Source: Verrucomicrobiota bacterium (GTDB lineage: Bacteria > Verrucomicrobiota > Verrucomicrobiia > Opitutales > Coraliomargaritaceae). Taken from it: 64,000 nt of DNA. The position numbers and the translations under genes are program-made. The stretch covers positions 46,296-110,295 of the forward strand of contig JBCBZJ010000009.1 in NCBI GenBank assembly GCA_039815375.1, given 5' to 3'. The notes beneath the pieces are model-generated. The model did no database searches. It was not told the origin of the DNA and was given only the letters and a program-made list of their open reading frames with translations. Positions 2,397 through 34,969 of the stretch are shown here, one piece after another. How positions within the stretch are numbered: the stretch's first letter is position 1; each line of letters starts with the position of its first letter.

Positions 2397-5300
2397 TTAA
2401 GTGACCATTGCTCTCATATTTTCGATTTCCTGGTTGCGCAGAGCGGTTGCTAGGTCGGTCACATGTGGGGCGGTCATCATGGAGAGGTGCGTGCCGGGAA
2501 CTTCGATAACGTTGACGGTAGCCGGGCTATAGTCCTGCCAATTTAGTTTGTGGTTTTGGCTTGAGCTCATTTCGCCCAGATCGACATCACTCTCTTGCGC
2601 TTTATAGAGTGTGATTGGCAAATCTACCGATAAGGCGTCAGGCTGATATTGTAAGGTTGCCATCGCGTTATCTCTGTAAACTTGGACGTATTTCCCGAGT
2701 GCTCTGGCGTTGATATGATCCGAGAGAACTTTGTGGCTGAGCAGGCGATTATGCAGTAAAGTGATCTGTTGGTCGTGGTTGAGTTTACGAAGGCCTTCGA
2801 TGCTTAGCTGCAAGTCGATGTGATACAACTTCTGCATCCGTGTGACGATATGTATGAGCCAGGTGGCGGTGTCCCAACTTTCGTATGGGCGCTCGTGCAT
2901 AGCGGATGGGGCGGGGTTATCGAGAATACCTAATTGCTTGATATTTCCCGCAGCTTCCGTGCCCAGCTGGCGCACCATCTCATAGGCGACGAGGCCTCCA
3001 TAGGAATGGCCGATCAGGGTGTAGGGTTGGCGGGCAAAGGGAGCTTGCTTCAGTTCATCGAGGTAGAAGGCAGCAGTCGCCTCGATGCCGGATTCTTCAG
3101 GTTTTCGTTCGGATAGCCCGACACCCTGCAATCCCCAGAGGGTGTAGTCGGGCTGTAGCAAGCGTGCGAGTTCATTGTAGTAGAGGATACTGCCCCCTGC
3201 GCCCGGAATGCAGACAATGGGCTCGCCCTCTGTGTTCGGAAGCAGGGGAGTCAGGATGGACTCGATCGAGTCTTCTGCAGTGCTAATCCACTTGGCTTGC
3301 TGCGATATGGTCGTGTTTGAGAGCACTTCCTGCAAGCTGAGTTGTGCTTCCAGACGTTCTTCGATGGTTGCGAGCAGTTTCACTGCAAGGAGTGAGTGAC
3401 CTCCGGTCTCGAAGAAGTTATCATGAATGCCGACGGTATCGACTTCGAGAGTTTCTTTCCAAATGTCCTGTAGAGTTCGCTCTAAGTCTGTCTGCGCTTC
3501 TGCGAAGCCTGTCTCGGTTCCGTTGGAAAGATTATCAAGCAGTTGTTTGATATCGGCTTTGCCATTGGGGTTAAGCGGTATCCGTTTTACTGGATGGATG
3601 AGTCCTGGGACCATTTGTTCCGGGAGTTGTTTTCCGGCCCAATCACCAAGCAATTTTGGTAGTTCTTGCAGGTTCTGGTCTGCTTTGGGAACGACGAAAG
3701 CGACTAATTGTGCATAGTCAGTTCCAGCTCGTTTGACGGTAGCAACTGACTGCTTTATCCAGCCGGACTCCTGGAGTGCGGTTTCGACTTGAAGCGGCTC
3801 GATGCGAAAGCCTCGTAGCTGAATTTGCCGATCGCTGCGACCAAGCAATTCAAGTGTTCCATTGGGTTGCTGGCGTGCGAGGTCTCCGGTCTTGTAGGCT
3901 CGCGGGCCGTTGCTGCCCGGCAATTGGACAAATGCTCGCTGGTTTGCTTTAGAATCCCCATGATAACCTGAACTTAAGCAATCGCCTGCGATGTAGACTT
4001 CTCCGGTTTCGCCTTTAGATACAGCCTGTAAATCTGTGTCCAAAATATAGATACCGGTGTTGGCAATGCATTGGCTGAGAGGAAGCGTCGCCGGGAGGGC
4101 GCCGTTGTCGTCGAAAGCTTGCAGTGGATGACTGAGAACCCCGATCGTAGCCTCAGTCGGTCCATAGTGATTGTAGATTTGGCAATGTGGTGCGAGTTTT
4201 CGTATCTCTCGAATCCACCCGTAGTCGGCTCCTTCGCCGCCAAGGATAAGGCTTTTGCGAGGGAAGAGTTCGGTGCTGGTCTGGGTTTGCAGCAGGGTTT
4301 TCCAATGGGAGGGGACGATCTTTAGATAATCGACTGCATTATCCTGCATGAAAATGGCAAATCTACGCGCATTGAGGCGGTCCGGTTCAGGCATGACATA
4401 TAAAGTGCCACCGCTGACGAGAGAGAGGAAAAGCATGGTGTTGCCGAGATCTGCCGCGAGTGTTGAAACGAGGGCAAAGCGTGCACGCTCCTCTATGCTG
4501 AGGTCGGGCATCATGCTCAGGATATAGTTGGCGACGGACCGGTGGGAGATCGGGACTGCCTTGGGCCGTCCGGTTGAGCCGGAGGTGAAGATAATGTAAG
4601 CGGTGTCTTCTAAACGAACAGCGACAGGAGTGTCAGTAGCTTTTGGCCGGGAGAGCAGGTCATCGACTGTAAACCTAACAGCGGTTATCTCCAGGCTGGT
4701 TAGTGACTTGGGTGCTTCCGAATCCACGAGCACGGCTAATGCCCCTGCGGTTTGAACCATATATTGCAGAAGGTCTGCGGGGTATTGCGATGGGTCCAGA
4801 GGGAGATAGGTCGCACCGATTTTGAGGACTGCTATAATACTACAGAGCGCTGCGTCGCTCGACTGGTTGCCGATGGCAATCACATCGCCAGTTTGGAATC
4901 CCCGTTGCGATAGGTTTTGGGCAAGTTCATTCGCGGCTTGATCGAGTTTCGCGTAGCTGAGCGTCTTGATGCCGTTCGAGTAGGCGGGGCTGTTTGGGTG
5001 TTCCACGACTTGTTGCTCAAAGAGTCTGGTCAGGCATTGGTCCGCCGCGATTTCTATGGTTGGGCCTTGCAGGCAAGGTTCCGGTGTAACGATCTCCGGT
5101 GGCGCGGTCCGTTGCCAGTTATTCAAGTCTGAAAATCGTGTTTGCGGATCGTTTGCAAAAGTCCTGAGCAGCATTTGATAGTCCTCTGCGAAGTGGCGAA
5201 TGGTGGACTCTTCAAACAGATGACAGTTGTAGCCGAAGGTTGCCTGCAATTGGCCGTTATCTTCTAGCAGTGTCAGCGTTAGGTCGAATTTCCCATCGGC

Positions 5301-6615
5301 CTGCCGGAAATCGAAGGTTTCGAGGTCGCTCTGTTTCCCTTGCTTTTGCTTTATATTGGTAATCGCTTTTCGAGTCAGGAAATTGAAGCTGATGTCGAAG
5401 AAAGGTGAGCGATTCGGTTGCCGCTCCGGCTTCAATTTCTCGACGAGCCAAGGGAAAGGCGCGTCGGCGTGATCCAGTGCTTCGCGGCTCTGCCGGGCGC
5501 TCAGGCGTAGCCACTGATCGAACGTATCCGTTGCTTCGGTTTTGACGGAGCGTATAATCACCGGATTGACGAAGTAGCCAACGGTCGAGGCATATTCGGC
5601 ACGTCCACGTCCTGCTGAAAAAGAGCCCAGGATCAGATCGTCACGTCTGCTGTAGTCATGTAGTTGATAAGCAAATACAGAAAGAAAAAGTGAGAATTCG
5701 GAAATATTCTCTTCGCGTGCTATCCCGGAGAGCTGCGAGTGGATTTCTTCAGGGACGATGCTTCGGATAGAAAGGCCCTCAAAGGTGAGGGTCGGAGGCC
5801 GGGGGTGGTCTTGTGCAGGGAGTGTGATGGGGTGTGGTGGATCTGCCAGATTCTCCTGCCAGTAGGCGAAGTTTGCCGCGCCCTCGGGGCTGCGGAGCAA
5901 TTCCTGCTCTTCGCGGGCATGATCGAAATAGGAATGTTTTTCCGGTTTGAGCTGCGGTTTATTGCCCGAGACAAGAGCATTTAGAATAGTATGCAGTTCC
6001 TGGCGTAGCACCTCTCGGGTACCATCCGTCACAGATGATGTGATGCATGGTGAAGAGCACGGTGCTGGGAGTGGTCCCGTCCTCGGAAAAGACCCTGAAG
6101 CGCACGGCTGCACTGGTTTCCAGATCGAACGGTGCTTCGTGTGCTTTGCGGGCCGCTGCATCGCGTTCGTTCATCGTGCATTGAGACAGATCGCTCCAGG
6201 CGCAATCCATGACTGCCGGATCGGTGCGCTGCTGAATCGGCTTCGTGGCATGAAGTGGAAACCGTGTGGAGAGCATGGGGTGGCGATCCAGGAGAATCCT
6301 GAAGCTCTCGATCCAGTTTTCATAGCTTGCACCGAGCGGCGAGGTCAGAGGGATCGATTGATTATAGGCGCTGCTCTCGGGGGCGAGTTTCCAGATGTAC
6401 CAGAGGGCACGTTGGCCATAGGTCAGTGGATAGGCCGAAAGCTGGTACGGCTCGTTTTTTAGGATATGGAGCAGTTCGGATTTATACTCACGGATACGCG
6501 GTAGAATCTCCTCCGTTGGCACGCTTTCCGGTGCCCTGAACTTGAGGCGATCCCCTTCCATCCAGAAGGACCAGCGCTCCAGGCTCAAATCGATAAAGAA
6601 TTCAAGTGGACTCAT
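2397..6615 (-). CDS. Terminal NRPS module: beta-hairpin docking domain-C-A(Asp code)-PCP-TE, interrupted by a +1 frameshift at ~6020 (pseudogene or sequencing error)
   Basis: ORF 5959-6615 encodes a TubC-type N-terminal docking domain and the C domain up to HHIICDGW. ORF 2397-6161 continues with REVLRQEL, A3 YIIFTSGSTGRPK, A5 NHYGPTE, A7 YKTGDL, PCP GGHSLL and TE GHSYGG. Removing T6020 restores HHIICDGWSREVL and one ~1405 aa frame. Confidence 0.9.
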
Positions 6616-9600
6616 ATTTCACCTTCTACCCACTGCGTTGCTGCACCTGCCGCGGAAAGTTGTAGCACTTCCGATTCTTTCTCGGTGGAATCGAGCGCTT
6701 CGGCGACTAGTTGGATCAATCCCGACAGCTCCAAATCCTGAAGGTGTGGTGTCTGCTTCAATTCGATGAATAGGTCTTGTTGTAGCTGGATGCGAAGCGC
6801 CATACTCATGATCGAGTCCATGCCCTGGGAGTTGAAATTTGCGCCTGGATCGACCGCGGAGGTAGATGAAAGACCAAGAATCGCAACGAGCACTTTGCGC
6901 AGATAGCGTTCGAGACGCCGGGAGCGTTCTTCGTCGTCAGCGCTGGCATTGAGCCATTCCAGGACGGACTCGGTCGACTCTTCGTTTTTGCGGTCCTTTG
7001 TCGCGCTCCATTGAGTTTCGGTGCAGCACATTTGCTCGAAGTAGAGGACCGGTTGCATGGAGCTGGTCTCACAAATGAGAATATCGACACTGAGCTTTGT
7101 CTCTGCGAATGTGTTCGGTGATTCGCGAACCTGAACGTGGTAGTCGCCCTGGGGTTCTGCATCGCCGAAGAGGATACTTGCCGCTTCTTCGGGGACAAAG
7201 AGCTTCCCCGGTGCTTTTTGTAAGATAAAAGCTCCCAGGGCTTGTGATGCAGCATCGAGCAAGGTGATCCACGGTCGATCGGGGTGGCTATCGGATGCAG
7301 GCGCAGGAATCGAGATTCTGGTCTGGATTGCTTCCGGCGAGCTGATGAGCTGCTGCATTGATTGCAGAGCAGGCGCAGTTTGAAAGCCTATCCGCTGGGA
7401 GCTTTCGTAATAAGTGTTCCCTTCCGTTGTCGTTTGCCCAGAGGCTGGTGTTGGCTTTGGCCATTGCTCCTGCGTATTCCAGGTAGCTGGCGAAGCAGGA
7501 AGATGGGCGGATGCGATGGTCTGCCAGCCAGCTTCCGGAGTGGGGCGCGCGAAAAGCGTTGCTTCAGCTGTTTCCGTATTTGGCTGGGTGATTTCGGTAT
7601 GCAGTGTGCAGCTCTCTTCCGTTAACTCGACGGCATTAAGGAGGGTAAGGTCACGAATTTCGTAGGTTGCGCTTGTCTGGCAGACTTCCGCTGCCTTGCG
7701 AAGAATGGCTAGAATGGCAGCATTGGGAAGGTAGGTCTTCCCTTGTATTTGCTGCTGCTTCCAGAATTTTGGCTGTGATCTGGAGCAGTGGGATTCAAAA
7801 CGGCGGGAGTTCGCGGTGCCTGGCAGCGTGAGCGCTTCACCAAGCAGTGTTCGGTTGTTGATTGCTTTTCCGTTCGAACGACTCTTTGCCCTATCAGGTT
7901 CGATCCAGTAGCGTTCTTTTGCGAAGGGATAGCTGGGAAGAGTGGTTCGTTTGCCGGGGTGATGACGATGATAATTCTGCCAGTTCGGTAGATATCCTGC
8001 CTCGTAGAGCTGGCCGAGTGCTTCGATGATGTGATGGTCATCGTTTGTCCTCGGGTGCAAGCTGCTGACCATGCTTATTTTGCTGCACTCGGGTATGCCT
8101 TGAGCCAGATTGAGCAGGGTAGGCTTGGGTCCGAGTTCCAGAAACAGGCCACAGCCGTTTGCGACTACCTGTTGGAGGGAGGCTTCGAAGCGAACCGTGG
8201 CACGTATCTGCTCGACCCAGTAGTCCGGTGTGGCGAAGGCTTGGCTTTCGAGTTGGCCGGTCATGCTGGAGATAACCGGGAGCGTGGGGGAATGGTAGCT
8301 TGTCTCTTGAGCGATGGTGCGGAATGGCTCAAGCATAGGATCCATCAACTCGGAATGAAATGCGTGTGAGACATGTAGTCGGGTGCATGCGACGGAACGT
8401 GCTTTCAGCAATTCGGATACTTGCTCGACTGTGCGAGTCAGACCTGAGAGCACGACGCTGTTTGCGGTGTTGACTGCTGCGACGGAGAGCTGCAGCTGGC
8501 TGTCCGACAACAACTCGAGAATAGTCGCTTCATCGGTTTCAACCGAGAGCATGGTGCCATTTTCTGGCAGAGACTGCATCAGTTGGCCACGATGTCGAAC
8601 CATACGCAGAGCGTCCTCCAGTGAGAAGACACCGGCAAGGCAGCAGGCGGCATACTCGCCGATGCTATGTCCGAGAAGGGTATCGGGTTCGATGCCCCAG
8701 TGGGCCCAAAGTTTGCCGAGTGCGTACTGTAGCGCGAAGAGGCAGGGCTGCGCGAATTCAGTGCGATGAATGCTTGTGCTTTCTGCAGACTCGTTTTCCC
8801 CACTTCTCCGAATCGTCTCGAGTATTGAATATCCCTGAGATTGCGCGATGGCCTCGCATGCGTCGATTGTGGCGCGAAAGATAGGCTCTGTTTGATACAG
8901 TCCGTATCCCATTTTTGGATACTGGGAGCCCTGTCCTGTAAAAAGGAAGGCGAGTTGTGGTCGGTATGGTTCCACTCTTTTTGCGGGTGCTTCCATCTGC
9001 TGACCGATTCGTTCCGCTGCTTCCTTACGTGAACGGATCGCATAGGCTTCGCGATAGGCAAAATGAGAACGCCCGAGATTGCTCGTCTGGCAGATGTCTT
9101 CCAGCGGCTTGCCAGAGTGCGAGAGGAAAGCCCTGTAGCGTTCGCGCATTTGATTGAGGGCACTCGGTGTCTTCGCGGAAAGGGTAAGTAAATGAGAACG
9201 GCGGCGCAGCTCGGACACATGATCCGCCGAGGCATTGGGGATGCCCCCTCTATGCTCCGATAAAATAACGTGTGCGTTGGTGCCACTGATGCCAAATGAG
9301 CTGACGCCGATGGACTGATTTGGCGCAAAGGTATCCCAGCATACGCTCTCCTGACATACCTCGATGGGTAGTGTTTCCCAATCGATATGGGGGTTCGGTT
9401 GCTCGAAGTGAAGTCCGGGCAGGAATTGGCGTTTCTGTAGCTGGAGTGTCGCCTTAATCAGGCCCGCTATGCCTGCGGCTGCCTCGAGGTGACCAATGTA
9501 GCTTTTGATCGAGCTGACCAGAAGCGGCGATGAAGAGCTATGTGAACGGGCGAAAATCTCTCCGAGGGCCTGAGCCTCGATGGGGTCACCGAGGGAAGTG

Positions 9601-24100: not shown

Positions 24101-27100
24101 TTCGGTCATTCAAGGTGTAGGCAGTTCCAGTGATGGCAAGGCGCTTGGCTTAACGGCCCCGAACACGAGCGGTCAGAAACGGGCCTTTGAGCGGGCCTAT
24201 CGCCTCTCAGGAGTAGACCCGAAAACACTCGGCTATTACGAGGCGCATGGCACGGGAACCGTCCTGGGTGACCGGACCGAACTTCAGTCTTTTCACAATT
24301 TGCTGAGTGATTCCGGTGCGGAGCCACAATCCTGTGCAATAGGTTCGCATAAAACCCTGATTGGTCATACAAAAACGGCGGCCGGGGTCACTGGTTTGAT
24401 TAAATCAAGCCTATCGCTCTATCACCGGGTCCTGCCTCCCCACAAAGGTGTCGAGGCACCGATTGATGGCGTGCAGAGCAAGGAAGACCCGGTTTGTATT
24501 ATGGATCGTGCCTCGCCATGGTGTGCTCAGGGTCAGAAACGGCGTTCGGCCGTGAGTGCGTTCGGTTTCGGTGGCACAAATACGCATATCGTGCTTGAGG
24601 AATACACTGCTTCGGGGCGTGATTTAGCCCCGGGTGCTGCAAAATGGCCCTGTGAGCTTTGCATATTCACGGCAAAGGACGAAATCTCTCTAGTTAATGA
24701 ACTGTCCGGGCACCTTAAGTTGCTGGAGTCGGCAGAAAGCAAAATCCGCTTATCTGATTATGCTTACAGCCTTGCCCATGAAGCGGAGACAAAAACTGAT
24801 TGTTCCCATGCTTTGACAGTGATTGCTCAAAACCTGGAGGAATTGAGGAAGGCGCTTGAATCCACACTCAAGATTTTGAGCGAGTCTCAATCGGAGCGCC
24901 GCTTCCCTTCGCATATTCGGTTTGCAGCCGCTCGACACGAGGCCGCAAAGATCGCCTTTGTCTTTCCCGGGCAAGGGGCCCAATACATCAATATGGCGCG
25001 TGAGTCGGCGCTCTATTTCGATGAGATCCGAAGTGTATTTGAGCGGGCGAACCAAGCGCTCGACGGCTGCTACGAAAAGCCTTTATCACGTTATGTCTTT
25101 CCTTCTGCGGCCTTCACGGAAGCAGATCGCGAGGAGCAGCGTTCCAGCCTTACGGATACCCATGTTGCGCAGGTTGCAATCGGCTCGGTCTCCCTCGGCT
25201 ACTATCACCTGTTGGAGCGTTTGGGAATCTCACCCGATGCGGTATGCGGACATAGTTATGGTGAATTTGTCGCGCTGCATGTTGCCGGTGCCTACAGCGA
25301 GGAGGCCTTTTTAAAGCTCTCTGAAGTGCGCGGTCGAGAGATGGCAAGCGCCTCTGCACTGGGAGGCGGTATGCTGGTCTGTTTCGCGGAGCGTCAGCAG
25401 ATAACGGAGTTGGCTCGGGAAATCGGCGAAGACCTCTGCATCTCGAATCATAACGCGCCGCGACAGGTCGTTCTTGCCGGAACGACCGATGCAGTGGAAC
25501 GGATGATTGCAGTCTGTGATCAGAAAGAGATTCGCTATCGCCGACTCAATGTTGCCGGACCGTTTCATTCGAGCTTAATGGAGCCCGCAAAAGCTCCGCT
25601 GGTTGAGGCGATTCGATCTGTAGAATGGTCTGAGCCCAAGATCCCGGTTTACTCGAATATGGATGGCGAATGCTATCCTGAAGATATTGATGGCCTGAAG
25701 GATTGCCTGGAGCGTCATCTTCTTCATTCGGTCGAGTTTGTCTCCCAGATCGAGCAGATGCATGCCGATGGAGTAGACCTTTTTATCGAGTGTGGTCCGA
25801 ACGGGTTGTTTTCCAAGATGATTGGGCAGATCCTGGAGGGCGAAGATCATCTTGCCCTTTCGCTAGATCGTGATGAGGGGGCGATAAGCCATCTGTTGGG
25901 TTGCCTGGCACAGTTGTTCAACCTTGGCGTTTGGCGGCTTCCCCTCCGATTGTTCAGCGGGCGGGATGTCACTTTCCTCGACTTTGCCGAGTTGCGGCAG
26001 CAGGCCGCTGAGGCGAGAAGCCAAGGTCCGGCTCCTCTTTGGTATGTCGATGGCTCCGGTTGTCGAGCTGCTAACGAGAAATTGAAACATCCAGGTAAAC
26101 TCTCACCACTCACTTACGAAGAATCATTGGAACTTATGGAGAAGCAACAACGGTTGGAAACAGGCCAGAGTCCTGGTCATCACAATGGCTCGCACAACGG
26201 AGAGCATGTCGTTATTCCGTCATCGCAGACCTCTAAGAATGGAACTTCGCATGCCTCAGGCACACCTTCGGCGTCTCCTGCTGCGGCGAAGCCGCAGACC
26301 CTTCACAGCATGCCCATGCCAACGAGCAATGTTGGAGGCCTTCAACCCAGCGAGGCACTTGCCGCTTACGAATCATACCAGCAAACCATGCAGCAGTTTC
26401 TGAAAATGGAAGAGTCGATTATGACGCGCTTCTTGCAGGGAGGCGTTGCACCTCCACATGATGTGGGCGATTTGAAGAACTCCATGGTCTCTGCACCTGC
26501 ACCGGAGTTCGTTGCCGCGCCATCCCATGCAGTATCAAATTCAAATGGTGTTGCCCCTTCAGACATGTTAGCGGAACCAACTTCGCGTGCACCGGAGTCA
26601 CCGCCGCAGGTTCCGGTAAACGCGGCTGAGGAAATGCCTCAAGCTGCTGAGTCGAGTGCAGCTTCGCCCGCTGCAACCGAGGTTGCCGAGAGCACAACAG
26701 TTGACACCCCGGATCGTGCACAAATGCAGGCCAGTCTGTTGGGTCTGGTTAGTCAACTCACAGGCTATCCTGAAGACCTTCTTGAGCTGGACAGCGATCT
26801 GGAGTCCGAGCTTGGGATCGACTCGATCAAAAGAATTGAGATTTTAACCAAGGTCATGGACCTACTGCCGTCGAGCATGAAGAAAGGGCTGAACGCCCAG
26901 TTTGAGCACCTTACTCAGATAAAGACACTGTCGGGTATTCTGGACGAGTTTGAAGCCTTTCTCGAATCTGCCGCTGCGGAGACAAGTGCGCCGGTCTCAT
27001 CGGAAAAATTAGTTAAACTTCCATCAGGGCCAATCAATGCAACGGATGCCTTGAGTGAGTCGACTTGTCCGCTTTCGGTGATGGTTAGTGAACGCACGGA

Positions 27101-28643
27101 GCTTCCCGCTGTGCTGGATCGTGCTTCCCTCGGTGCCGGCTTGTATTTACTGACTGATGGTCCGGTTGAACTGGTTGCTGCGGTCACCCGATTGCTCAAG
27201 GCCCGTGGCGCGTCGGTTACGGTTTTGGAGACTGCCGACTACATGTCTGCGGAACGACTCAAAGCGCGCGTTTCGGCTCTACGCGAGCAGATGCCGATTG
27301 CGGGTATCATTCACCTGGCGGGAATCGGAGATAAGGCGTGGCCGGATAATTTTGATGAGCTGAAAACCCAAACTCGAATGGATACCAAGAGTTTCTTTCA
27401 ACTTATCCAGCTCTGTCGTGAGAACCTGATGAAGCTTTCAGAGAAGGGTGGTGGGCAAGTTGTTTCCGTGTCACACCTTGATGGACTTTTTGGGCGGGGA
27501 GGTAGCCGGATCGCAGGTTTTCCGACCGTCGGAAGTAGTGTGGGTCTGTTGAAAACACTTCATACGGAATCGGAAGGTTTACACCTGCGGGCTCTGGATT
27601 TTGATGGGCAACTTTCTGTTGAAGACGAGGCAGAAAAAATTGTGGCTGAAACACTGATTCCCGGTGATGCGATCGAGATTGGCTACCAAGCTGGTGTTCG
27701 ACATACATTTCACGCTGAAATAGTCGAGCGGATGGAGGCTCCAAATTGGAAGCAAACCGTTCCGCCATCGCGCGAGAATTGGGTTGTGCTGGCGACAGGC
27801 GGCGCGCGTGGGATCACGGCTGAAATTCTCAAGCGCTATGCCGAGCCCGGTATGCAGATTGTTCTCGTCGGACGCTCTCCTGTCGGTGAAGCCCCTGTTT
27901 TTGAGGGTGCCGATGCCGAGGACGTTGATTCATTGCGTAAAGCCTTGATCGCAGAGATGCAGGGCCGGAACGCAAAAATCACTCCAGCTGCGATCGAATC
28001 CGAGCTTCGTTCGATACTTGGGCAGCGTGAACGCTTACGTAACCTTCGTGATCTGGAGGCACGGGGCGCAGTCGTTTCCTATCACGCTGTTGATGTCGCC
28101 GATGAGGCTGTCTTCAAACCTTTCCTCGAAGAGCTCTATTCGCGCTTTGAGCGGATCGATGCGGTTTTTCACGGGGCCGGTGTTCTCGAAGACAAATTGA
28201 TCGCCGATAAAACGCTCGATTCGTTTGATCGCGTATTTGATGTGAAAGTGGATAGCACCTTCCTCCTGACGAAACATCTCAAACCCGATTCCTTGCGCGA
28301 GTTGGTGCTTTTCTCGTCGATTGCGGGTCGTTTCGGAAATCGCGGTCAAGTGGACTATGCGGCGGCAAATGAGGCTCTGAACCGTTTTGCGTGGGTGCTG
28401 GACCGTTCATGGGAGCAGACACGGGTCGTGTCCATGAACTGGGGACCGTGGGCATCTGCAGGAATGGCAGTCGATCCGCAGATTGCTGCTCAGTTCCAAA
28501 AACAGGGCATCGTTCCCATTGATACGGAGGACGGCAGCCGCGTAATGTTAGAGGTTCTCAATAGTCAAATTGCCCCTGATGCCGTGGAAATCATTGCGGG
28601 CCTTGGAAACTGGGTTCAGGGTGGCCCGATGATCGCTGGATAA
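21153..28643 (+). CDS. Iterative type I PKS/fatty-acid synthase, PfaA/HglE-like: FMN-dependent ER (nitronate monooxygenase/FabK-like)-KS-AT-ACP-KR
   Basis: ER motifs YPIVQGPMTRVSD, EGRECGGHVG and FAGGIHD; KS DAACASS/HGTGT/GHTKTAAG; AT PGQGAQ/GHSYG/GPFHS; PfaA-type ACP LGIDSIKRIEIL; KR TGGARGIT and YAAAN. Confidence 0.92.
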   Translation: MKNSVTERFECLVFTPLHLDHPGLAIAAAQAGAVPVFDFEYAASEYGSQIQANFRRFLDATDAGTTCYGIRSTPEQLARCLEWIGTEETPLCDRIILHGWMSDKLAATLDEIEPTGCRLFLEVTSASEIEPIREYLPKIDGLVGKGNESGGRVGTESSYVLIQKLIDAQELPVYVRGGIGAHSAAACRVLGASGIVLDDTLWLFPESPLCHSLGPVLRRVDVKDSIIVGAELGAGCRFLQRPDLPAARGLVDHARQLEAALERRGESAVQAEWLSCLSDELGFEEKPNGVMPVLPLGPLAVFSDAYAKRFKSLARYIHHILSSSTEAVKQSRLQSTLAPDSPMAVDHGTRYPIVQGPMTRVSDRAEFAVRLAESGGLPMLALALMRAEQVKTLLDETRASIGDQAWGVGLLGFAPKDLLDAQIKEVLRVKPGFALLAGGRPTQAGILEAEGIKTYIHAPVPSLLTNFLEQGARRFVLEGRECGGHVGPLSSFVLWEEAIEVLLRHSRSKQAEPVSVLFAGGIHDRRSAAMVAAMAAPLVDAGARVGVLMGTPYIFTQEAVETGAIMSEFQQQARICERTTIIESSPGHQIRCSTTPFMDEFRRARRSYLEQGLSGVEIKDALEHLSLGRLRIASKGVTRSKDGGLEEVSAEDQVRDGMYMLGDTATMHADTCSLEELHREVSIGCVDWLQELDFSEPPREPVAARPCQVAVVGMAAFLPGAEDVDAYWRNLLDLEDSMKEIPQEYWDWRLYYQDLQSGEERNLDQTVSKWGGFIKEVPFNPIQYGIPPNSLKRISPAQLLALESVYRTVQDAGYSFDEIDRENTSVIFGTDGSSPLKGHFIFRTLMPLFHYRDDSIMDRLPEWGEEAFPGILANVGPGRVANRFDLGGTNFVVDAACASSLKAIDLAVQELESGRSNCVIAGGVDIDQSPEAYVAFSSSHALSPTGRVRTFDQSADGIVISEGISVVMLKRLEDAERDGDRIYSVIQGVGSSSDGKALGLTAPNTSGQKRAFERAYRLSGVDPKTLGYYEAHGTGTVLGDRTELQSFHNLLSDSGAEPQSCAIGSHKTLIGHTKTAAGVTGLIKSSLSLYHRVLPPHKGVEAPIDGVQSKEDPVCIMDRASPWCAQGQKRRSAVSAFGFGGTNTHIVLEEYTASGRDLAPGAAKWPCELCIFTAKDEISLVNELSGHLKLLESAESKIRLSDYAYSLAHEAETKTDCSHALTVIAQNLEELRKALESTLKILSESQSERRFPSHIRFAAARHEAAKIAFVFPGQGAQYINMARESALYFDEIRSVFERANQALDGCYEKPLSRYVFPSAAFTEADREEQRSSLTDTHVAQVAIGSVSLGYYHLLERLGISPDAVCGHSYGEFVALHVAGAYSEEAFLKLSEVRGREMASASALGGGMLVCFAERQQITELAREIGEDLCISNHNAPRQVVLAGTTDAVERMIAVCDQKEIRYRRLNVAGPFHSSLMEPAKAPLVEAIRSVEWSEPKIPVYSNMDGECYPEDIDGLKDCLERHLLHSVEFVSQIEQMHADGVDLFIECGPNGLFSKMIGQILEGEDHLALSLDRDEGAISHLLGCLAQLFNLGVWRLPLRLFSGRDVTFLDFAELRQQAAEARSQGPAPLWYVDGSGCRAANEKLKHPGKLSPLTYEESLELMEKQQRLETGQSPGHHNGSHNGEHVVIPSSQTSKNGTSHASGTPSASPAAAKPQTLHSMPMPTSNVGGLQPSEALAAYESYQQTMQQFLKMEESIMTRFLQGGVAPPHDVGDLKNSMVSAPAPEFVAAPSHAVSNSNGVAPSDMLAEPTSRAPESPPQVPVNAAEEMPQAAESSAASPAATEVAESTTVDTPDRAQMQASLLGLVSQLTGYPEDLLELDSDLESELGIDSIKRIEILTKVMDLLPSSMKKGLNAQFEHLTQIKTLSGILDEFEAFLESAAAETSAPVSSEKLVKLPSGPINATDALSESTCPLSVMVSERTELPAVLDRASLGAGLYLLTDGPVELVAAVTRLLKARGASVTVLETADYMSAERLKARVSALREQMPIAGIIHLAGIGDKAWPDNFDELKTQTRMDTKSFFQLIQLCRENLMKLSEKGGGQVVSVSHLDGLFGRGGSRIAGFPTVGSSVGLLKTLHTESEGLHLRALDFDGQLSVEDEAEKIVAETLIPGDAIEIGYQAGVRHTFHAEIVERMEAPNWKQTVPPSRENWVVLATGGARGITAEILKRYAEPGMQIVLVGRSPVGEAPVFEGADAEDVDSLRKALIAEMQGRNAKITPAAIESELRSILGQRERLRNLRDLEARGAVVSYHAVDVADEAVFKPFLEELYSRFERIDAVFHGAGVLEDKLIADKTLDSFDRVFDVKVDSTFLLTKHLKPDSLRELVLFSSIAGRFGNRGQVDYAAANEALNRFAWVLDRSWEQTRVVSMNWGPWASAGMAVDPQIAAQFQKQGIVPIDTEDGSRVMLEVLNSQIAPDAVEIIAGLGNWVQGGPMIAG

Positions 28644-28672: not shown

Positions 28673-29044
28673 ATGGGCACTCTTATCGACCAACATTATC
28701 GGGAAGTGCGCGAAAGAGCGCTTCTCTTCAGTTTCACGATCAAAGTCAATCTGGCCTTAGTTCAAGACGAGGAGGACTTCTATTTTTCTGGCGACTATGA
28801 TATCAGCGGCATCGTTAATGTCTCTGGTCAAATCGATCCAAGAGGTCCAATTACAGGGGATTGTGAAGAGCGGGTTGAACTGAATTCCGGAAATGTCATC
28901 CAATATCGGGTCGAGAACTGGTCCTATGAAGACGGTGAAGTTGCATGCACCTTATCCGTCGAAGCTGAGTATCAGGCACTCGGGAAAAAGCGCAGGGTCG
29001 TGATTTTCGAATCGGTTCAATACGCCGGGGAATTGACTTCATGA
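28673..29044 (+). CDS. Hypothetical protein
   Basis: 123 aa ORF between the PKS and the SDR; its stop overlaps the SDR start (ATGA), suggesting translational coupling. Confidence 0.6.
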   Translation: MGTLIDQHYREVRERALLFSFTIKVNLALVQDEEDFYFSGDYDISGIVNVSGQIDPRGPITGDCEERVELNSGNVIQYRVENWSYEDGEVACTLSVEAEYQALGKKRRVVIFESVQYAGELTS

Positions 29045-29817
29045 CGAACCTCTCTGAGACGGAATCCTTGCGGCAGGTGGCTCTCATCGTGGGTGGAGCC
29101 AGTGGTATAGGCCTGGCAACAGCCGGGAAATTTCTCCAGTCTGGGGTGTGTGTGATGTTAGCGGATGTCAACACGAGTGCAGGCCAGCTGCGTTGCCGTG
29201 AGCTCCAGCAAGCCTACGGAGAGGATGCCTGCGCTTTTGTGTCGGTTGATGTTACGAACTCTTCATCCGTTGAAGCAATGGCGGAGACGACTCACCAGCG
29301 CTGGGGGCGGATTGATTTCCTCATCAATAGCGCCGGATTGGGAGCCACACCAAGTCTTCCTCATATGCTAGACGATGCGGAGTTCGAACGAACTCTCGGA
29401 GTGAACCTGTCAGGGGTTTTTCGATCGATGAAGGCTGTGATACCTGTCATGTTACGCCAAAAGTCCGGATCTATCGTCAATTTGGGAAGTGTTGGAGGTA
29501 TGCACCCGATGCCGTACGGCTGCGACTATGGGGCGTCCAAAGCGGCAGTCATCTTCCTCAGCCGTTCGATGGCTCAAGCCTACGGTCGAAACGGAATCCG
29601 TGTCAATGTAGTCAGTCCGGCATGGGTGGATACGCCGATGATTGATGAGGTTGTCGAGCGTAAGGGCCCTGAAATGCGAGAAAAAATGAAGTCGGATATT
29701 CCACTTGGGCGGATCGGGTGCCCCGAGGAGATCGCGGGCACAGTTTACTATGTTGCCTGCGATGCTTCCTTTATGTCCGGGAGCAATGTCACCGTCGATG
29801 GGGGAATGGCATCCTAG
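29041..29817 (+). CDS. Short-chain dehydrogenase/reductase (FabG-like)
   Basis: GGASGIG, INSAG, catalytic YGASK and VTVDGG motifs. Confidence 0.92.
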   Translation: MTNLSETESLRQVALIVGGASGIGLATAGKFLQSGVCVMLADVNTSAGQLRCRELQQAYGEDACAFVSVDVTNSSSVEAMAETTHQRWGRIDFLINSAGLGATPSLPHMLDDAEFERTLGVNLSGVFRSMKAVIPVMLRQKSGSIVNLGSVGGMHPMPYGCDYGASKAAVIFLSRSMAQAYGRNGIRVNVVSPAWVDTPMIDEVVERKGPEMREKMKSDIPLGRIGCPEEIAGTVYYVACDASFMSGSNVTVDGGMAS

Positions 29818-29983: not shown

Positions 29984-30394
29984 ATGGATAATTCAGATAA
30001 AGCATTAAATGGAGCCAAACTTGTTGGTGAAGCCTATCTTCCTGGTTCAAGCTTATTGATCGATGGTGATATCCTCGGTGGCGGTGCCTACGCTGCGGCG
30101 GGTTTTGTTGCAGGTCGTTTCTTCGGTTTACCGGGAAAGCTTTTCGTAGCCGGCGAATCGTTCACTCGCTCCGTTGCCGGTAAGGGCCTTGTCGAACTTG
30201 TTGCTGATACAGCTGGTAAAGCAGTCAAAGGCGCAACTGAGAAAGTTCAATCAAAGGTGAGTCGTAAATCGGAAGTGAAGCAGTCCAAGGCACGCGATGA
30301 GCTAAAGGATGTTATTCGCGAGGTCATGCTCGAATTGAGCCAAGAGACCAAAGCTACCAGAACCCCTGCCAAGAAGGTAGCGGCTAAAGCCTAA
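29984..30394 (+). CDS. Small Gly-rich membrane-associated protein (DUF6072-like)
   Basis: GAKLVGEAYLPGSSLLIDG...SFTRSVAGK N-terminal region and a Lys/Ala-rich tail; followed by a terminator. Confidence 0.55.
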   Translation: MDNSDKALNGAKLVGEAYLPGSSLLIDGDILGGGAYAAAGFVAGRFFGLPGKLFVAGESFTRSVAGKGLVELVADTAGKAVKGATEKVQSKVSRKSEVKQSKARDELKDVIREVMLELSQETKATRTPAKKVAAKA

Positions 30395-30969: not shown

Positions 30970-33033
30970 ATGGTGGACTCTTCTGCTTCAATCAAACTAC
31001 TGTCGACTACCGGACTGAGGCAGCGCTGGAGAGTGCGTACTCTCTGCGGCGAGGTCTCGGAAGCGAAGCTTTTCGAAGCATTGCTGCGTGCAGATGCAAC
31101 CGTTGAACGGGTTTCAGCTGACCCAGTTACCGGGAGGGTTCTCATTGTATTCAAACAATCCCGGGATACGGAAGAAGTTGCTGAGTACATCCAATCATCT
31201 CTGGTGCGGGTTGCCGCGATGCCCGAATCAGAGCGGATCAAGCTGATTGGGCGGACTCGGCAAAGTCCGGTAGGAGTCTTCCGGCTTTTAGGAGAGATTC
31301 CCGGGATTAAAATCCTTCTCGTTTTGAAGGCAGTTGCGTTTTCGGTAACCTTTAACGCACTCAACATTCTGCCGCCCTTGATTTTTGCAGCAATTGCCTA
31401 CTTAGGCATGAACGGCACCTTTGCGATAATGGAGAGCATGGGAGTCAACTCCTTGACCATGCAATTCATTCTGGTGGCAATCGGTGGTCTGATCGTATAT
31501 TCAATCCGTACTTATTTTTCTTTTTCGACCCGCGATGCCTGGCGTGAGCTAGGTCAAACGGTTCAGCACTCTTTGCGAACCAAGATTTTCAAGAAGGTCC
31601 AGTTTCTGGAGCTTCCCTATGTTGCCGATCGCACTCATTCCGGTATACGTGATGTAGTCAGCGAAGATACGGCTGCGGTTGAAGCTTTCTATGAAAAGGG
31701 GCTTGAGGACATCATACGCAAGGTAGTTACGTTGATCTTTGTCCAGCAGGTTTATCTGCTTCTCTCACCTCTGGTCGCGATTATTGTTTTTCTGATCATA
31801 TTCGCATTTTGGGTTTCGTGGTCCGTTTTTCACCGCAACGCGGCGATTCCCTACAAGGCTGCAGTTGAAGCAGACGCGGACCTGAACGAACACATCTCCA
31901 AAAACATTGCCGGAATTGAAACTGTGCGCAGCTACGTGGCGGAGAAGTTTGAAATAGAACGGATGCAGGATGCAAGTTTGCGTGCACTTGCTGCCGGTAA
32001 GCAGGCGACGCTGATTACCTGGTTGTATTCACATCTCGTGGATCTCTGTCTCTTCGTCTGCTTCCTCCTTATTTTGACTGTATCAGGAATCATGCTTGCC
32101 AATGGTTTGATTGATATCGGTGCATTTATTATTCTCGTCTTTCTGATACCGCGTGTGGGCGTCATCTTTGACAATATCGAAGAAACGCTCGACCTGTATC
32201 AACGGGCGAATGCGGCAAGCCGTCGGATTCTGGATCTACTGGCTATCCAACCAAGTAGTCAGAACCGGGTAGAGCAAAGCCTGGAGACGGCAGATATCAG
32301 GGGACACTTGGACTTCCGCTCGATCACATTTTCCTACACTGGGCGTTCTCCGGTCATTGCGGAGACGTCATTCGAGATTCCGGCTGGGAGCAGCTGCGCT
32401 TTTGTCGGAAGCACCGGTTCGGGCAAGAGCACTCTGGCGAGGTTGCTCATGCGCTTCTATGATTTGAATCAGGGGCAGATCTGTCTGGATGGCCACGATA
32501 TCTCAGAGCTCAACGTCCAGTTCCTGCGTTCGCAAATCGGTTATGTTAGTCAGGACACCTATTTATTCAACGGAAAGCTAATTGATAACATTCGTTTCGG
32601 TAGACCTGATGCGACGCTTGAGGAAGTCGTCACGGTGACTAAAATGGTCGGAATTTATGAGTTCATTGAAAAACTTGAGAATGGCTTCGATACCATCGTG
32701 GGAGAGCGTGGGCAGTTCCTCTCGGGAGGGCAGCGCCAGCTAATCTCTATTTCACGAGCTCTGATTAAGAATCCGAAGATTTTCATATTTGATGAGGCAA
32801 CTTCCGCTTTGGATAATGAGACGGAGGCAATGATTCACAACGCAATCTCCAAGGTGATGCAGGATCGAACCACGATCGTGATTGCTCACCGTTTGAGTAC
32901 TATCACCAACGTCGACAAAATACATGTCCTCTCAGAGGCAGGTATTCATGAATCAGGATCGCATGAGCAATTGGTGAAAGACGACGGAATCTATGCTGCT
33001 TTGTGGAAGTTGCAGGCCCGCGGCTTAGGTTAG
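30970..33033 (+). CDS. ABC exporter (fused TMD+NBD) with an N-terminal HMA2-like domain
   Basis: Walker A GSTGSGKS, signature LSGGQRQ, Walker B IFDEATS, H-loop IAHRLST and several TM helices; N-terminal GLRQRWRV...VSADPVTGRVLIVF. Confidence 0.92.
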   Translation: MVDSSASIKLLSTTGLRQRWRVRTLCGEVSEAKLFEALLRADATVERVSADPVTGRVLIVFKQSRDTEEVAEYIQSSLVRVAAMPESERIKLIGRTRQSPVGVFRLLGEIPGIKILLVLKAVAFSVTFNALNILPPLIFAAIAYLGMNGTFAIMESMGVNSLTMQFILVAIGGLIVYSIRTYFSFSTRDAWRELGQTVQHSLRTKIFKKVQFLELPYVADRTHSGIRDVVSEDTAAVEAFYEKGLEDIIRKVVTLIFVQQVYLLLSPLVAIIVFLIIFAFWVSWSVFHRNAAIPYKAAVEADADLNEHISKNIAGIETVRSYVAEKFEIERMQDASLRALAAGKQATLITWLYSHLVDLCLFVCFLLILTVSGIMLANGLIDIGAFIILVFLIPRVGVIFDNIEETLDLYQRANAASRRILDLLAIQPSSQNRVEQSLETADIRGHLDFRSITFSYTGRSPVIAETSFEIPAGSSCAFVGSTGSGKSTLARLLMRFYDLNQGQICLDGHDISELNVQFLRSQIGYVSQDTYLFNGKLIDNIRFGRPDATLEEVVTVTKMVGIYEFIEKLENGFDTIVGERGQFLSGGQRQLISISRALIKNPKIFIFDEATSALDNETEAMIHNAISKVMQDRTTIVIAHRLSTITNVDKIHVLSEAGIHESGSHEQLVKDDGIYAALWKLQARGLG

Positions 33034-33046: not shown

Positions 33047-34099
33047 TTACGCCAATTTGAACTCCAGAATCTTACGACCGATTTTAGTCGGATGGACTCC
33101 AGCGAGTTCCAGACCCGCATCCGCAGCGATATCGGTATACTCTTTCTGCGTTCGGGATTTTCCGTTCACCAGGATCATAAAGTTCAGGTCGAGCCAGTTT
33201 GCCATTTCCGAACCTGCCTCATCTGCCACCAGATACTCGATGATCAGCAGGCGTTTGTCGGCATTAGCTGATTCACTTGTTTGGTTGTGCCTCATTGCTT
33301 CACTTAGGCTTTTAAGTAGTTTCTTCGTTTGATGTTGGGGCCAGTTATGAATGGTATTTTTGATAATGTAGAGGTCCCCATCTGTGGGAACCGAATCGAA
33401 GAAGTCGCCCCCGATTAGACGAAGCTTCCCACTGGTTTCCAGGGCCTGCACGGGTTTGTAAGCCGTATCTGAGGATCGAAGTTGTTCGAAGGTGTCCTTA
33501 CGATCAAACAGGGTTCCTTTACTGTTGCCTGCGGACTCGAGAATAGCTGTCAAGAAGGAGCCATGTCCGCCGCCAACATCAATGATGTGCTTGAATTGAT
33601 CGAATGGGAAAGACTTCGACAGAACTTGGTCATCACGGACTGAAAGGTCTGTCATCGCTTGGTGGAAGACTGCTTTGAGTTCGGGTTTGTCTGCTAAATA
33701 ATCAAGTGTTCCAGATGCGGCTGTGTCTGCATATTTGCTACTTGGACCTTGTTTGAGGATGTCAGTAAGCTGGCCCCATGGATGATAGCGGTAGGGTGCT
33801 CCATTGAGGCGTGCAGCTGCACGTTGGCTCTGTGGATGATCGCTGCGAAGCAGGTCTCCGAGAGGACTTAGCACATAACCGTCATCATGATCAGTCTCGA
33901 TCAAGTCCAGATTGGCAGCGCAGCGGAGAAAGCGTTCAAGCATTTCGGTGGCAGTTCCTGTTTGCTCAGCAAGATAATCTACGAAACGGCGCTCTCCATT
34001 AAAGCAGTCTGCTATGCCGAGCTCTGCAAATGTATAGGTCACGGAAGTGGCCCAGTTGCCGTAGATTAACTTGTGTACTTGAGGGATGAGCGAGGCCAT
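33047..34099 (-). CDS. SAM-dependent methyltransferase (COMT-like, dimerisation + Methyltransf_2 domains)
   Basis: IDVGGGHG, GDFFDSVP, KNTIHNW and LDLNFM...GKSRT motifs. Confidence 0.9.
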   Translation of the reverse strand: MASLIPQVHKLIYGNWATSVTYTFAELGIADCFNGERRFVDYLAEQTGTATEMLERFLRCAANLDLIETDHDDGYVLSPLGDLLRSDHPQSQRAAARLNGAPYRYHPWGQLTDILKQGPSSKYADTAASGTLDYLADKPELKAVFHQAMTDLSVRDDQVLSKSFPFDQFKHIIDVGGGHGSFLTAILESAGNSKGTLFDRKDTFEQLRSSDTAYKPVQALETSGKLRLIGGDFFDSVPTDGDLYIIKNTIHNWPQHQTKKLLKSLSEAMRHNQTSESANADKRLLIIEYLVADEAGSEMANWLDLNFMILVNGKSRTQKEYTDIAADAGLELAGVHPTKIGRKILEFKLA

Positions 34100-34201
34100 G
34101 TGTATTACTCTTGGTAGTTTGAATGTGGATATTTCTATCTATGATCGCGTTATTATTCGATCTTTCATGATGGAATCAACTCTAGGAATAAATCATTTGC
34201 A

Positions 34202-34969
34202 TCAGGAACCCTCTACTGCCTTCTCCAATGATCCTGGATCCAATTCAAAATGTAGAAGTTCTGTAATTGAGGAATCCGTCGCTATAGCGGATTGATAATC
34301 CTCAATGTTGGAGATGTCGAAAAGTGACCACTCTCTAAGCACTTTTGTGCCTTGCTTATGGTTTACAGTGATTTGTAGGTCCCGGTCATCTAGAAAGTTA
34401 ACGGAAAAAGTATCCAATTGCAGAGCTAAACCGAGGCCCACTGCTTTGATATAGGCTTCCTTGCAGGTCCAGCATCGATAGAAGGCATGTAGACGCTCGC
34501 TTTCCGGTAGCTCGCGAAGGTTCGTATACTCCCGAGGCGAGAAAAAGCGTTCTGCGAGTTTCATGTAATCCAGTGGGCGCTTCGGGTGGCAGCACTCGAT
34601 ATCGATCCCGACTGGAGTAGATTTCGTGATCGCAATTTGTCCGTAATCGGCGGAGTGGGAGACGTTGAAACAAACGAACTCCCCCGAATCTATTTTCTTG
34701 AGCGAAGGTTTTCCATGCAGCGAGTATTCAATGTTCAGCTTTTCTGGTATTTTCTGTAGATACCGTGCAAGGAGAAGTCGCAGGCTGGCACGTGTGACGG
34801 TGTAGGAAGTCGAATGCTCTTCAAATTTAAATCGCAGAGCTCTCTCTTGCTCGTCGGAGCTTAATACTGTGAAGAGGTCTTTCTTTATTGGTTTGATCCG
34901 GTCAATGCATAGAGTCCAGATATGCGCTGTGCGCTTATTTATAGTCATAACGCTTTTATCCTGAATCAT
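34202..34969 (-). CDS. Sfp/HetI-type 4'-phosphopantetheinyl transferase
   Basis: FNVSHS, VGIDIE and WTCKEAYIKAVGLGL motifs. Confidence 0.93.
   Translation of the reverse strand: MIQDKSVMTINKRTAHIWTLCIDRIKPIKKDLFTVLSSDEQERALRFKFEEHSTSYTVTRASLRLLLARYLQKIPEKLNIEYSLHGKPSLKKIDSGEFVCFNVSHSADYGQIAITKSTPVGIDIECCHPKRPLDYMKLAERFFSPREYTNLRELPESERLHAFYRCWTCKEAYIKAVGLGLALQLDTFSVNFLDDRDLQITVNHKQGTKVLREWSLFDISNIEDYQSAIATDSSITELLHFELDPGSLEKAVEGS

Follow-up and report, generated by a model that had tools for sequence, protein, structure and literature searches.

Does the stretch between positions 2397 and 34969 of a 64,000-nucleotide window from a Verrucomicrobiota genome (assembly GCA_039815375.1, contig JBCBZJ010000009.1; 'the window' hereafter means all 64,000 nucleotides) encode one biosynthetic pathway, and what would such a pathway make? 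The original prediction, made from the sequence alone, had read this stretch as a hybrid in which an iterative PfaA-like lipid synthase feeds a polyketide synthase (PKS) and a non-ribosomal peptide synthetase (NRPS), the product being glycosylated, aminated, sulfated, methylated and exported. An open reading frame (ORF) map combined with Pfam and NCBIfam scans of the window confirms all the genes and domains then listed, at the coordinates given below: the stretch is a real biosynthetic gene cluster of ~33 kb. We consider it probable that it is a single cluster of a recurrent family, whose product would consist of a long chain, one ketide unit and aspartate, with glyco-, amino-, sulfo- and methyl-tailoring followed by export. 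The individual pathway steps proposed here are inferred from domain content, conservation of synteny and residue patterns.

Co-occurrence of the two halves

A profile scan of metagenome contigs for the loading acyltransferase (AT) of the PKS yielded 23 loci, against which all window proteins were then searched by tblastn. A PKS of the window type (loading AT plus ketosynthase (KS)-AT, 30–40% identity) is carried by nine of these 23 loci. Two of the nine contigs, of 3.8 and 2.1 kb, are too short for adjacency to be judged; in all seven testable loci (L049, L050, L053, L056, L063, L065 and L066) the PKS gene lies directly beside the gene for the fused pfaD-pfaA-like synthase (PfaDA), that for its AT-dehydratase (AT-DH) partner, or both. 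L050 and L056 are near-duplicates of each other, as are L063, L065 and L066, which leaves about four independent lineages. The arrangement is tightest in L050, where PfaDA, AT-DH, PKS and NRPS follow one another in this order on one strand with a methyltransferase gene next. All parts are likewise present in the metagenome-assembled genome (MAG) G063 of Opitutia, a class of Verrucomicrobiota, spread over three short contigs that hold, respectively, a fused PKS-NRPS with adjoining methyltransferase, PfaDA with a glycosyltransferase (GT), and an AT-DH fused to a phosphopantetheinyl transferase (PPTase) together with acyl carrier protein (ACP), GT28-like and GT_PLOD-like genes.

Close homologues among 5.8 billion proteins are 53 and 47% identical to AT-DH, 63 and 55% to the synthase and 57 and 48% to the PKS, the more distant one of each pair probably deriving from one and the same contig of 105,415 nt. 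About a dozen further fused PKS-NRPS forms of ~2800 aa were also found among the PKS homologues. Because the two halves co-occur in 7/7 testable loci, in the bacterium Ottowia thiooxydans (see below), in the Opitutia MAG and probably on the 105,415-nt contig, it is very unlikely that they represent two unrelated loci, which supports the prediction of one cluster.

Within the phylum, AT-DH matched 10 of 401 sampled genomes at E ≤ 1e-25 (the window genome included), of which only G295 also has a PKS-NRPS relative. This genome belongs to the same order as the window genome, and its contig numbers and coordinates are identical to those of G063. Three phylum relatives with a full-length AT-DH match (G149, G161 and G070) were rejected as family members: they are of KS-AT-DH(-PPTase) type beside a PfaA-like gene, with no PKS-NRPS in the 20–40 kb of sequence covered. 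No full-length relative of AT-DH was found in 60 relatives, including eight genomes of the same genus, where matches span the AT part only; so the linkage seems to have been kept across distant carriers rather than among close kin. Pattern scans of genome contigs with P0002 alone and of metagenome contigs with the AT-DH alignment gave 59 and 160 pattern matches, respectively, none of which was confirmed.

The genes around AT-DH also have a distribution of their own. In other phyla, too, there are loci in which AT-DH is accompanied by ACP, GT28-like, GT_PLOD-like and Gfo/Idh/MocA plus DegT genes. The Bacteroidia locus L014 carries AT-DH, ACP, YdjC, GT_PLOD, further GTs and PfaDA, and a search of its genome with P0003 found no PKS-NRPS relative; L052 carries AT-DH-PPTase, ACP, GT28-like, YdjC, Gfo/Idh/MocA (47% identity) and DegT (51% identity) genes. 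As this lipid-sugar core can thus be found where no PKS-NRPS is visible, the cluster is best described as a glycolipid core to which a head-group module has been joined. L049 has radical SAM and B12-binding-domain proteins (885–3273) directly upstream of its methyltransferase-PKS-NRPS-PfaDA row, and two radical SAM genes lie near the glycolipid core of L014.

The lipid synthase and a proposed acyl hand-over

The synthase PfaDA (21153–28643, plus strand, 2496 aa) was assigned by Pfam and by reading of its active-site motifs. It consists of an NMO-type enoylreductase (ER; residues 464–606), KS (708–1099), AT (1269–1562), ACP (about 1862) and ketoreductase (KR; 2212–2434). Ahead of the main ER, an N-terminal extension of ~340 aa (21153–22170) contains a second, weak NMO-like match covering profile positions 130–221; a comparable extension is present in the L014 homologue from Bacteroidia. 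Its partner AT-DH (17999–20932, plus strand, 977 aa) is a pfaBC-like protein without the KS-chain length factor (CLF) part, matched in Pfam by Acyl_transf_1 and PS-DH only; the DH residue H560 is invariant in 3/3 close homologues. Distant relatives of AT-DH (P0008, P0019, P0032 and P0036; L015/L027; L052) have a C-terminal PPTase domain and some of them an N-terminal KS as well. In the window, nothing follows the DH region of AT-DH, and the PPTase has a gene of its own at a distance of 13 kb; these arrangements look like a series of gene fissions or fusions within the family.

Of the traits of canonical polyunsaturated fatty acid (PUFA) synthases, Pfam found in the cluster neither a CLF nor a second Pfa KS, and one ACP and one PS-DH only. 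A heterocyst glycolipid synthase (Hgl) would have a terminal thioester reductase (HglB-type) and KS-CLF; the 19 ORFs scanned by Pfam contain neither an NAD_binding_4/thioester reductase domain nor a CLF. With CLF, tandem ACPs and thioester reductase all lacking, the domain make-up of the lipid part sets it apart both from PUFA synthases and from the alcohol-making Hgl systems, and it should yield a long, largely saturated acyl-ACP.

A small ACP-like protein with an LGFSS motif is encoded at 12483–12788 (plus strand). Its profile scores are weak (Pfam PP-binding, E 0.003; NCBIfam ACP, 2.3e-5), but five distant loci keep a homologue at 32–48% identity: in L013, L014, L027 and L052 its gene comes directly after that of AT-DH, and in L063 it stands between those of AT-DH and PfaDA. 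We therefore take this free ACP to be real.

The passage of the acyl chain to the PKS would involve two unusual acyltransferases. Among its paralogues, the AT of AT-DH has its best match in the loading AT of the PKS, and vice versa (E 3.9e-35). Both classes (the window proteins, two close homologues of each, and Ottowia) were aligned with the FabD of the same genome and with extender ATs. The FabD-type Arg is absent from 7/7 AT-DH and loading ATs, which have GFG(S/A)E in place of GQGxQ, whereas 4/4 extender-type ATs keep both this Arg and the Gln of GQGxQ. The lack of malonyl-binding Arg and Gln in both suggests that these Arg-less ATs are unlikely to handle malonyl units and makes them candidates for the acyl hand-over. 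A functional analogue would be the starter unit acyltransferase (SAT) domain of fungal synthases.

The assembly line

The PKS (6612–12221, minus strand) has, by Pfam, the order AT(load)-ACP-KS-AT-DH-like-ACP. The prediction of one modular PKS module was thus correct as to the single extension module; it had overlooked the loading AT-ACP, the absence of a KR and the state of the DH-like domain. Pfam detected no KR in this protein, and none was seen in any PKS of the family. The DH-like domain retains DxxxQ and has Gln at the position of the HxxxGxxxxP His. This His is absent in 10/12 distinct family members, being present only in P0165 and P0248, and the fused PKS-NRPS forms are devoid of the DH-like domain altogether. 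With no KR and with a DH-like domain that is either His-less or missing, the β-keto group would probably persist after extension, which also matters for the mode of product release. The extender AT carries HAFH, which we take to be a malonyl signature. The C-terminus is formed by the docking tail WVEGEI, which fits the W(V/M)(E/R)GE(L/I) found at this place in each of the 12 split PKSs.

The NRPS (2397–6615, minus strand) comprises a TubC_N-type docking domain and condensation (C), adenylation (A), thiolation (T) and thioesterase (TE) domains, as judged by Pfam. The C-A-T-TE composition had been predicted correctly; the docking domain can be added to it, and the prediction had missed that the gene is split in the window by a frame break. 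One ORF (5959–6615) covers the docking domain and C positions 4–145, the other (2397–6161) C positions 148–445 and A-T-TE, the break falling directly after HHIICDGW at about 6018–6021. Contigs of four public marine-metagenome runs were aligned to window positions 5000–7000. Only a Logan contig of run X1 (15,828 nt, depth 14.7) spans the break, runs X2, X3 and X6 failing to bridge it; run X1 may be the source sample of the genome. Compared with the window, this contig has three substitutions at 6015–6017 and one base fewer at 6020, which joins both frames (…DGWS) into a docking-C-A-T-TE protein of ~1405 aa by codon arithmetic done by hand. The intact orthologue in the metagenome locus L049 has 1406 aa. 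As the X1 contig differs exactly at the break and reads in frame, the break is probably a local fault of assembly or polishing, or a minor variant, rather than a sign of decay.

The ten specificity positions of the A domain, obtained from motifs and alignment and rederived by hand, read DLTKIGHIGK. The A domains of six relatives have DL(T/S)K(I/V)GH(I/V)GK, so that all seven, including those of the window and of Ottowia, are of the same type. The code DLTK(V/I)GH(I/V)GK presumably denotes Asp specificity, and on this basis the A domain would activate Asp, in agreement with the predicted condensation with this amino acid. The TE has a GHSYG motif and the Ser/Asp/His make-up of an α/β-hydrolase; among solved structures, it comes closest to 4zxh, an ordinary type I NRPS TE. 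When the NRPS was searched against 1.84 billion representatives, the best 150 matches were its own record and 149 giant multimodular NRPSs at 27–33% identity.

Tailoring, export and priming genes

Two GTs frame the sugar-related genes. The first, at 12790–13965 (plus strand), is a GT-B enzyme of Glyco_tran_28_C/MurG-like type by Pfam. In L027 a homologue of 37% identity follows AT-DH-PPTase and ACP, and L052 has another. The second, at 17117–17929 (plus strand), is a small GT-A enzyme that Pfam identifies as GT_PLOD-like; its homologues in L013, L014 and L027 are 36–47% identical, and it is a signature gene of the glycolipid core. Between them lie a Gfo/Idh/MocA NAD oxidoreductase (15965–17044, minus strand; Pfam, with all NCBIfam matches below cut-offs) that resembles sugar or inositol 2-/3-dehydrogenases, and a DegT/DnrJ/EryC1-family pyridoxal phosphate-dependent aminotransferase (14746–15984, minus strand; Pfam and NCBIfam, the start having been re-read at Met 15984). 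In L052 the 51% identical DegT homologue adjoins the 47% identical Gfo/Idh/MocA gene. Taken together, the two GTs, Gfo/Idh/MocA and DegT lead one to expect a glycoside with an amino sugar or an aminocyclitol. In L014 (12972–13739), L052 (14446–15249) and L026 (525–1415) the glycolipid core is accompanied by genes of YdjC-like or polysaccharide deacetylase type, a hint that these loci attach the amino sugar in its N-acetyl form and remove the acetyl group afterwards; a deacetylase gene is absent from the window cluster.

A PAPS (3'-phosphoadenosine-5'-phosphosulfate)-type sulfotransferase of the Sulfotransfer_3/1 families is encoded at 13997–14734 (minus strand; Pfam). An adenosine 5'-phosphosulfate (APS) kinase encoded elsewhere in the genome would supply its PAPS. 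The Methyltransf_2 methyltransferase, which has a dimerisation domain (33047–34099, minus strand; Pfam), has homologues of 34–50% identity directly beside the PKS-NRPS in L025, L049, L050, L063 and L066. As it adjoins the PKS-NRPS in these five related loci, its conservation points to the head group as the site of methylation.

A FabG-like short-chain dehydrogenase/reductase (SDR; 29041–29817, plus strand; Pfam and NCBIfam) is a possible trans-acting ketoreductase or a sugar dehydrogenase. The export function falls to an MsbA/HepA-like ABC transporter with fused transmembrane and nucleotide-binding domains (30970–33033, plus strand; Pfam, all NCBIfam matches being below cut-offs), and priming to a PPTase of Sfp/HetI type (34202–34969, minus strand; Pfam), which matches the NCBIfam HetI model at E 5.6e-51, below its cut-off.

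Two further genes inside the cluster were not part of the original prediction. A 123-aa ORF (28673–29044, plus strand), which overlaps the SDR start, is unassigned to any family: neither Pfam nor NCBIfam gave a match, and structural leads from the Atlas are weak ones to a predicted β-barrel. A DUF6072 protein is encoded at 29984–30394 (plus strand; Pfam, E 8.5e-19).

Relation to published clusters

A 2026 survey (PMC13291983) kept 63 PKS-NRPS-PUFA-synthase-like hybrid clusters from antiSMASH-DB, according to its main text with PKS/NRPS genes within 20 kb of pfa-like genes and colocalisation conserved in relatives as the curation rule. In the window, 5.8 kb separate the PKS from AT-DH, which places PKS and NRPS within 20 kb of the pfa-like genes. 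One singleton of that survey, from Ottowia thiooxydans, is described there as having a fused pfaD-pfaA, a fused pfaBC without KS-CLF, a 'trimodular' PKS-NRPS, a GT and a protein of unknown function, and is uncharacterised (PMC13291983). All these features are shared with the window, as are the AT-ACP/KS-AT-ACP/C-A-T-TE line and the Asp-type code. The PKS is 40% identical over 1445 aa to, and collinear with, residues 40–1439 of the Ottowia protein P0266, and the NRPS 38% identical over 1171 aa to residues 1778–2902 (BLASTP). Given this collinearity, we regard the window cluster as a split-gene version of the Ottowia-type hybrid: P0266 is a single protein of 2911 aa without a DH-like domain, whereas the window has two proteins with a docking pair. 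Ottowia belongs to a different phylum and has, according to the survey text, an additional Pls/PosA-type NRPS. The window exceeds it by Gfo/Idh/MocA and DegT, the sulfotransferase, SDR, DUF6072, the ABC exporter and the separate PPTase, the comparison being with the Ottowia tailoring genes named in that text.

The claim of novelty must therefore be reduced. No characterised cluster of this architecture was found in the literature covered, but an orthologous, uncharacterised one had already been published (PMC13291983), and the novelty was overstated. Neither 'Verrucomicrob' nor 'Opitut' nor 'sulfotransferase' occurs in the available text and supplementary PDF of that survey, and the papers listed on Verrucomicrobiota and hglE-KS are, by title and abstract, all general metagenome surveys. 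The window cluster is thus the first member of the published PUFA-synthase-like/PKS/NRPS hybrid type that we can document in Verrucomicrobiota, with extra amino-, sulfo- and SDR tailoring.

Other known systems are more remote. The Flavobacteriales clade VI clusters have a fused pfaDA and a pfaBC-PPTase and are likened to Renibacterium in section 7 of the same survey (PMC13291983); Renibacterium is Type M in the scheme of secondary lipid synthases given by Shulse & Allen 2011 (PMC3098273). The fused pfaDA and the pfaBC-like gene are common to clade VI, Type M (Renibacterium salmoninarum type) and the window, but the AT-DH of the window has neither a PPTase domain nor a KS, and the clade VI clusters are described as having 9–11 NRPS modules, unlike the window. 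With Hgl ('Type F') systems the cluster shares the PfaA-like KS-AT-ACP-KR order, presumably a long hydroxylated and glycosylated chain, and, below cut-offs, the HetI-like PPTase and HepA/MsbA-like exporter. It differs in lacking KS-CLF (HglC/D) and a thioester reductase, and its chain would pass to the PKS-NRPS instead of being reduced to an alcohol. In zeamine and fabclavine biosynthesis a Pfa-like lipid is also passed to a PKS-NRPS, as outlined in the survey (PMC13291983), but the KS-CLF, aminotransferase domains and thioester reductases that make their polyamino chains are all absent from the window.

Proposed pathway and product

In the pathway that we propose, PfaDA and the DH of AT-DH would work iteratively to give a long acyl chain that is saturated for the most part and may retain a hydroxyl. 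The Arg-less ATs of AT-DH and of the PKS loading domain would pass this chain, maybe via the free ACP, to the loading ACP of the PKS in a SAT-like manner. The KS-AT of the PKS would then add one malonyl unit, leaving the β-keto group in place, and its C-terminal tail would dock on the NRPS, where the C domain would join the β-ketoacyl chain to Asp held on the T domain. Release by the TE would most attractively occur by Dieckmann cyclisation, or otherwise by hydrolysis or lactonisation. The two GTs would add the sugar(s), Gfo/Idh/MocA and DegT would turn a sugar or cyclitol hydroxyl into an amine via the ketone, the sulfotransferase and the Methyltransf_2 enzyme would decorate the product and the ABC pump would export it. 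The HetI-like PPTase would prime the five carrier domains.

The biosynthetic logic of the original prediction (iterative chain, one extension, Asp, tailoring and export) thus holds, and it is strengthened by synteny and residue patterns at the level of the family. Four regularities appear to run through the family: the linked halves, the Arg-less AT pair, the KR-less module with a His-less or missing DH-like domain, and an invariant Asp-type code accompanied by the conserved methyltransferase. The product is most likely a glycosylated, sulfated and methylated long-chain β-ketoacyl-Asp compound. N-(β-ketoacyl)aminoacyl thioesters are the classical precursors of tetramates. Release by the TE as a 3-acyl-5-carboxymethyl tetramic acid is accordingly a serious possibility, to which we give somewhat less than an even chance.

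Such a product would resemble a group of sponge metabolites. The ancorinosides, from Ancorina and Penares, combine a disaccharide, an unadorned C20-type alkyl tether and a 3-acyl tetramic acid derived from N-methyl-D-Asp, and their synthesis includes Dieckmann closure of an N-(β-ketoacyl)-aspartate, according to the portions of PMC8541288 available to us; these portions mention neither biosynthesis nor a gene cluster. Each building block of ancorinosides A–D, as described there, has a candidate gene in the window: the long chain, the unreduced C2 unit, Asp, the methyl group and two sugars. There are also differences. Ancorinosides contain uronic acids and neither an amino sugar nor sulfate; their Asp is of D configuration and N-methylated, and the window has no epimerisation (E) domain; their sugar sits on a terminal hydroxyl, which the window cluster does not obviously provide. 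A literature search, by title and abstract, found no paper tying long-chain glycosylated tetramic acids to PUFA-synthase-like genes. We put forward the link to ancorinosides as a hypothesis by analogy. Tentatively, and with more doubt than confidence, the family might be the means by which bacteria make glycosylated 3-acyl tetramic acids with long chains, of ancorinoside (perhaps melophlin) type, in which the TE would act as a Dieckmann cyclase and the Methyltransf_2 enzyme would methylate the ring, the Verrucomicrobiota version giving an amino-sugar, sulfated analogue.

Alternative explanations

Several observations weigh against the pathway outlined above. The whole family is uncharacterised as to product, expression and enzyme activity. 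The Asp assignment depends on the presumed meaning of the specificity code, strings of which a literature search found in no paper. For the sulfotransferase, DUF6072 and the 123-aa ORF the related loci seen offer no counterpart, and the cluster contains no hydroxylase to account for the site of sugar attachment. The likeness of the TE to 4zxh gives no hint of Dieckmann activity, its sequence being compatible with hydrolysis as well as with Dieckmann closure. In the same pathway the TE could simply hydrolyse, which would give a lipoamino acid of linear N-(3-oxo- or 3-hydroxyacyl)-aspartate type, glycosylated and sulfated, as the original prediction implied; a TE that is an ordinary Ser/Asp/His α/β-hydrolase most similar to a standard NRPS TE would suit this, and the keto group might be reduced in trans by the FabG-like SDR encoded beside PfaDA. 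However, in related loci no such SDR adjoins the PKS-NRPS, the only matches being at unrelated positions in L016 and L054; no KR was seen in any PKS of the family, whose DH-like domain is mostly His-less or absent; and in general chemistry N-(β-ketoacyl)aminoacyl thioesters are the classical way into tetramates. We see hydrolysis as possible, though on the unlikely side. The TE might instead form a macrolactone by linking the carboxyl of Asp to a hydroxyl on the sugar or at a distal site of the chain. Terminal C-A-T-TE modules often macrocyclise, and glycosylation requires a retained chain hydroxyl in any case; but nothing in the sequence points to this outcome, which would compete with glycosylation for the same hydroxyl, and we find it quite unlikely.

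Another objection concerns the hand-over of a long chain by the loading AT, which is itself inferred. Arg-less loading ATs in ordinary modular PKSs also load short acyl-CoA starters, and the glycolipid core of L014/G062 and L052, with no PKS-NRPS in view, can work alone. The PKS-NRPS might then make a small head group such as acetoacetyl-Asp or a 3-acetyl tetramate from a short starter, and the Pfa-like genes a separate glycolipid, the two being joined later or never. Against this speak the adjacency in 7/7 testable loci and the tight gene order of L050, as well as the closest paralogy of the loading AT with the AT of AT-DH, down to their common, unusual GFG(S/A)E motif. Moreover, Pfam identified no ligase or acyltransferase in the cluster able to join two pieces, and separate products seem to us improbable. 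Finally, the frame break directly after a catalytic motif raises the question whether the cluster is a decaying remnant whose NRPS is truly frameshifted in the organism. The window copy is indeed broken, and a single contig, possibly from the source sample, is the only one that reads intact; yet that contig, at depth 14.7, departs from the window by three substitutions and one base fewer exactly there, and the remaining cluster genes are open with intact active-site motifs. Decay is therefore highly improbable.

Layout and genomic setting

The cluster is organised in divergent groups of genes. On the minus strand, the PKS gene (12221 to 6612) is followed by the NRPS gene (6615 to 2397), the stop of the former overlapping the start of the latter (ATGA). 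The free ACP-like gene and the GT28_C-like GT lie on the plus strand between the PKS and the sulfotransferase. Gfo/Idh/MocA, DegT and the sulfotransferase form a minus-strand group divergent from a plus-strand run of GT_PLOD-like GT, AT-DH, the ER-KS-AT-ACP-KR synthase, the 123-aa ORF, SDR, DUF6072 and the ABC exporter; the methyltransferase and HetI-like PPTase genes occupy the far end.

The genome (3.56 Mb, 66 contigs) contains no second PKS/NRPS locus. Its other KS matches reach only 24–26% identity, and we read the remaining KSs as probable housekeeping enzymes of FabF/FabB types. Recent horizontal transfer was considered on grounds of composition and is unsupported, neither measure being an outlier: GC content is 52.4% in the cluster and 50.8% in the genome, 15% of 283 windows of 32 kb being as high or higher, and the tetranucleotide distance of the cluster is exceeded by 17% of genome windows.

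Several neighbouring features were placed outside the cluster. Upstream, positions 1–844 (minus strand) encode a phage tail collar domain protein, cut at the window edge, and a DUF6916 protein, with no visible link to the cluster; a 271-aa ORF at 1287–2102 is lipoprotein-like by Atlas look-up. Beyond the PPTase gene, the intergenic stretch 35172–35407 holds a dispersed repeat of ~100–240 nt at 73–83% identity, with at least seven other copies on six other contigs (three on C45, and on C57, C54, C6, C47 and C41); those on C57, C6 and C47 start within ~200 nt of the contig start. Rfam gave nothing for this repeat and 0 matches in the whole window. A 1369-aa protein follows at 35674–39783 (minus strand), with a C-terminal Laminin_G_3 domain as its sole Pfam match. 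This stretch has no DNA match in eight genomes of the same genus, unlike the genes from ~40.4 kb onward, which are 68–79% identical to those of congeners and lie there on scattered contigs; no clean insertion site could be drawn.

Implications

The logic of long chain, unreduced ketide, Asp and methyltransferase appears to be conserved across Burkholderiales, Opitutia and several metagenome lineages. Within it, the Arg-less AT pair provides a concrete candidate for the transfer of a chain from a PUFA-synthase-like machine to an assembly line. Few natural products have been described from Verrucomicrobiota, and the pathway would contribute one of lipid type. If the tetramate reading is true, bacteria make glycosylated long-chain tetramic acids of a kind that has so far been isolated only from sponges.

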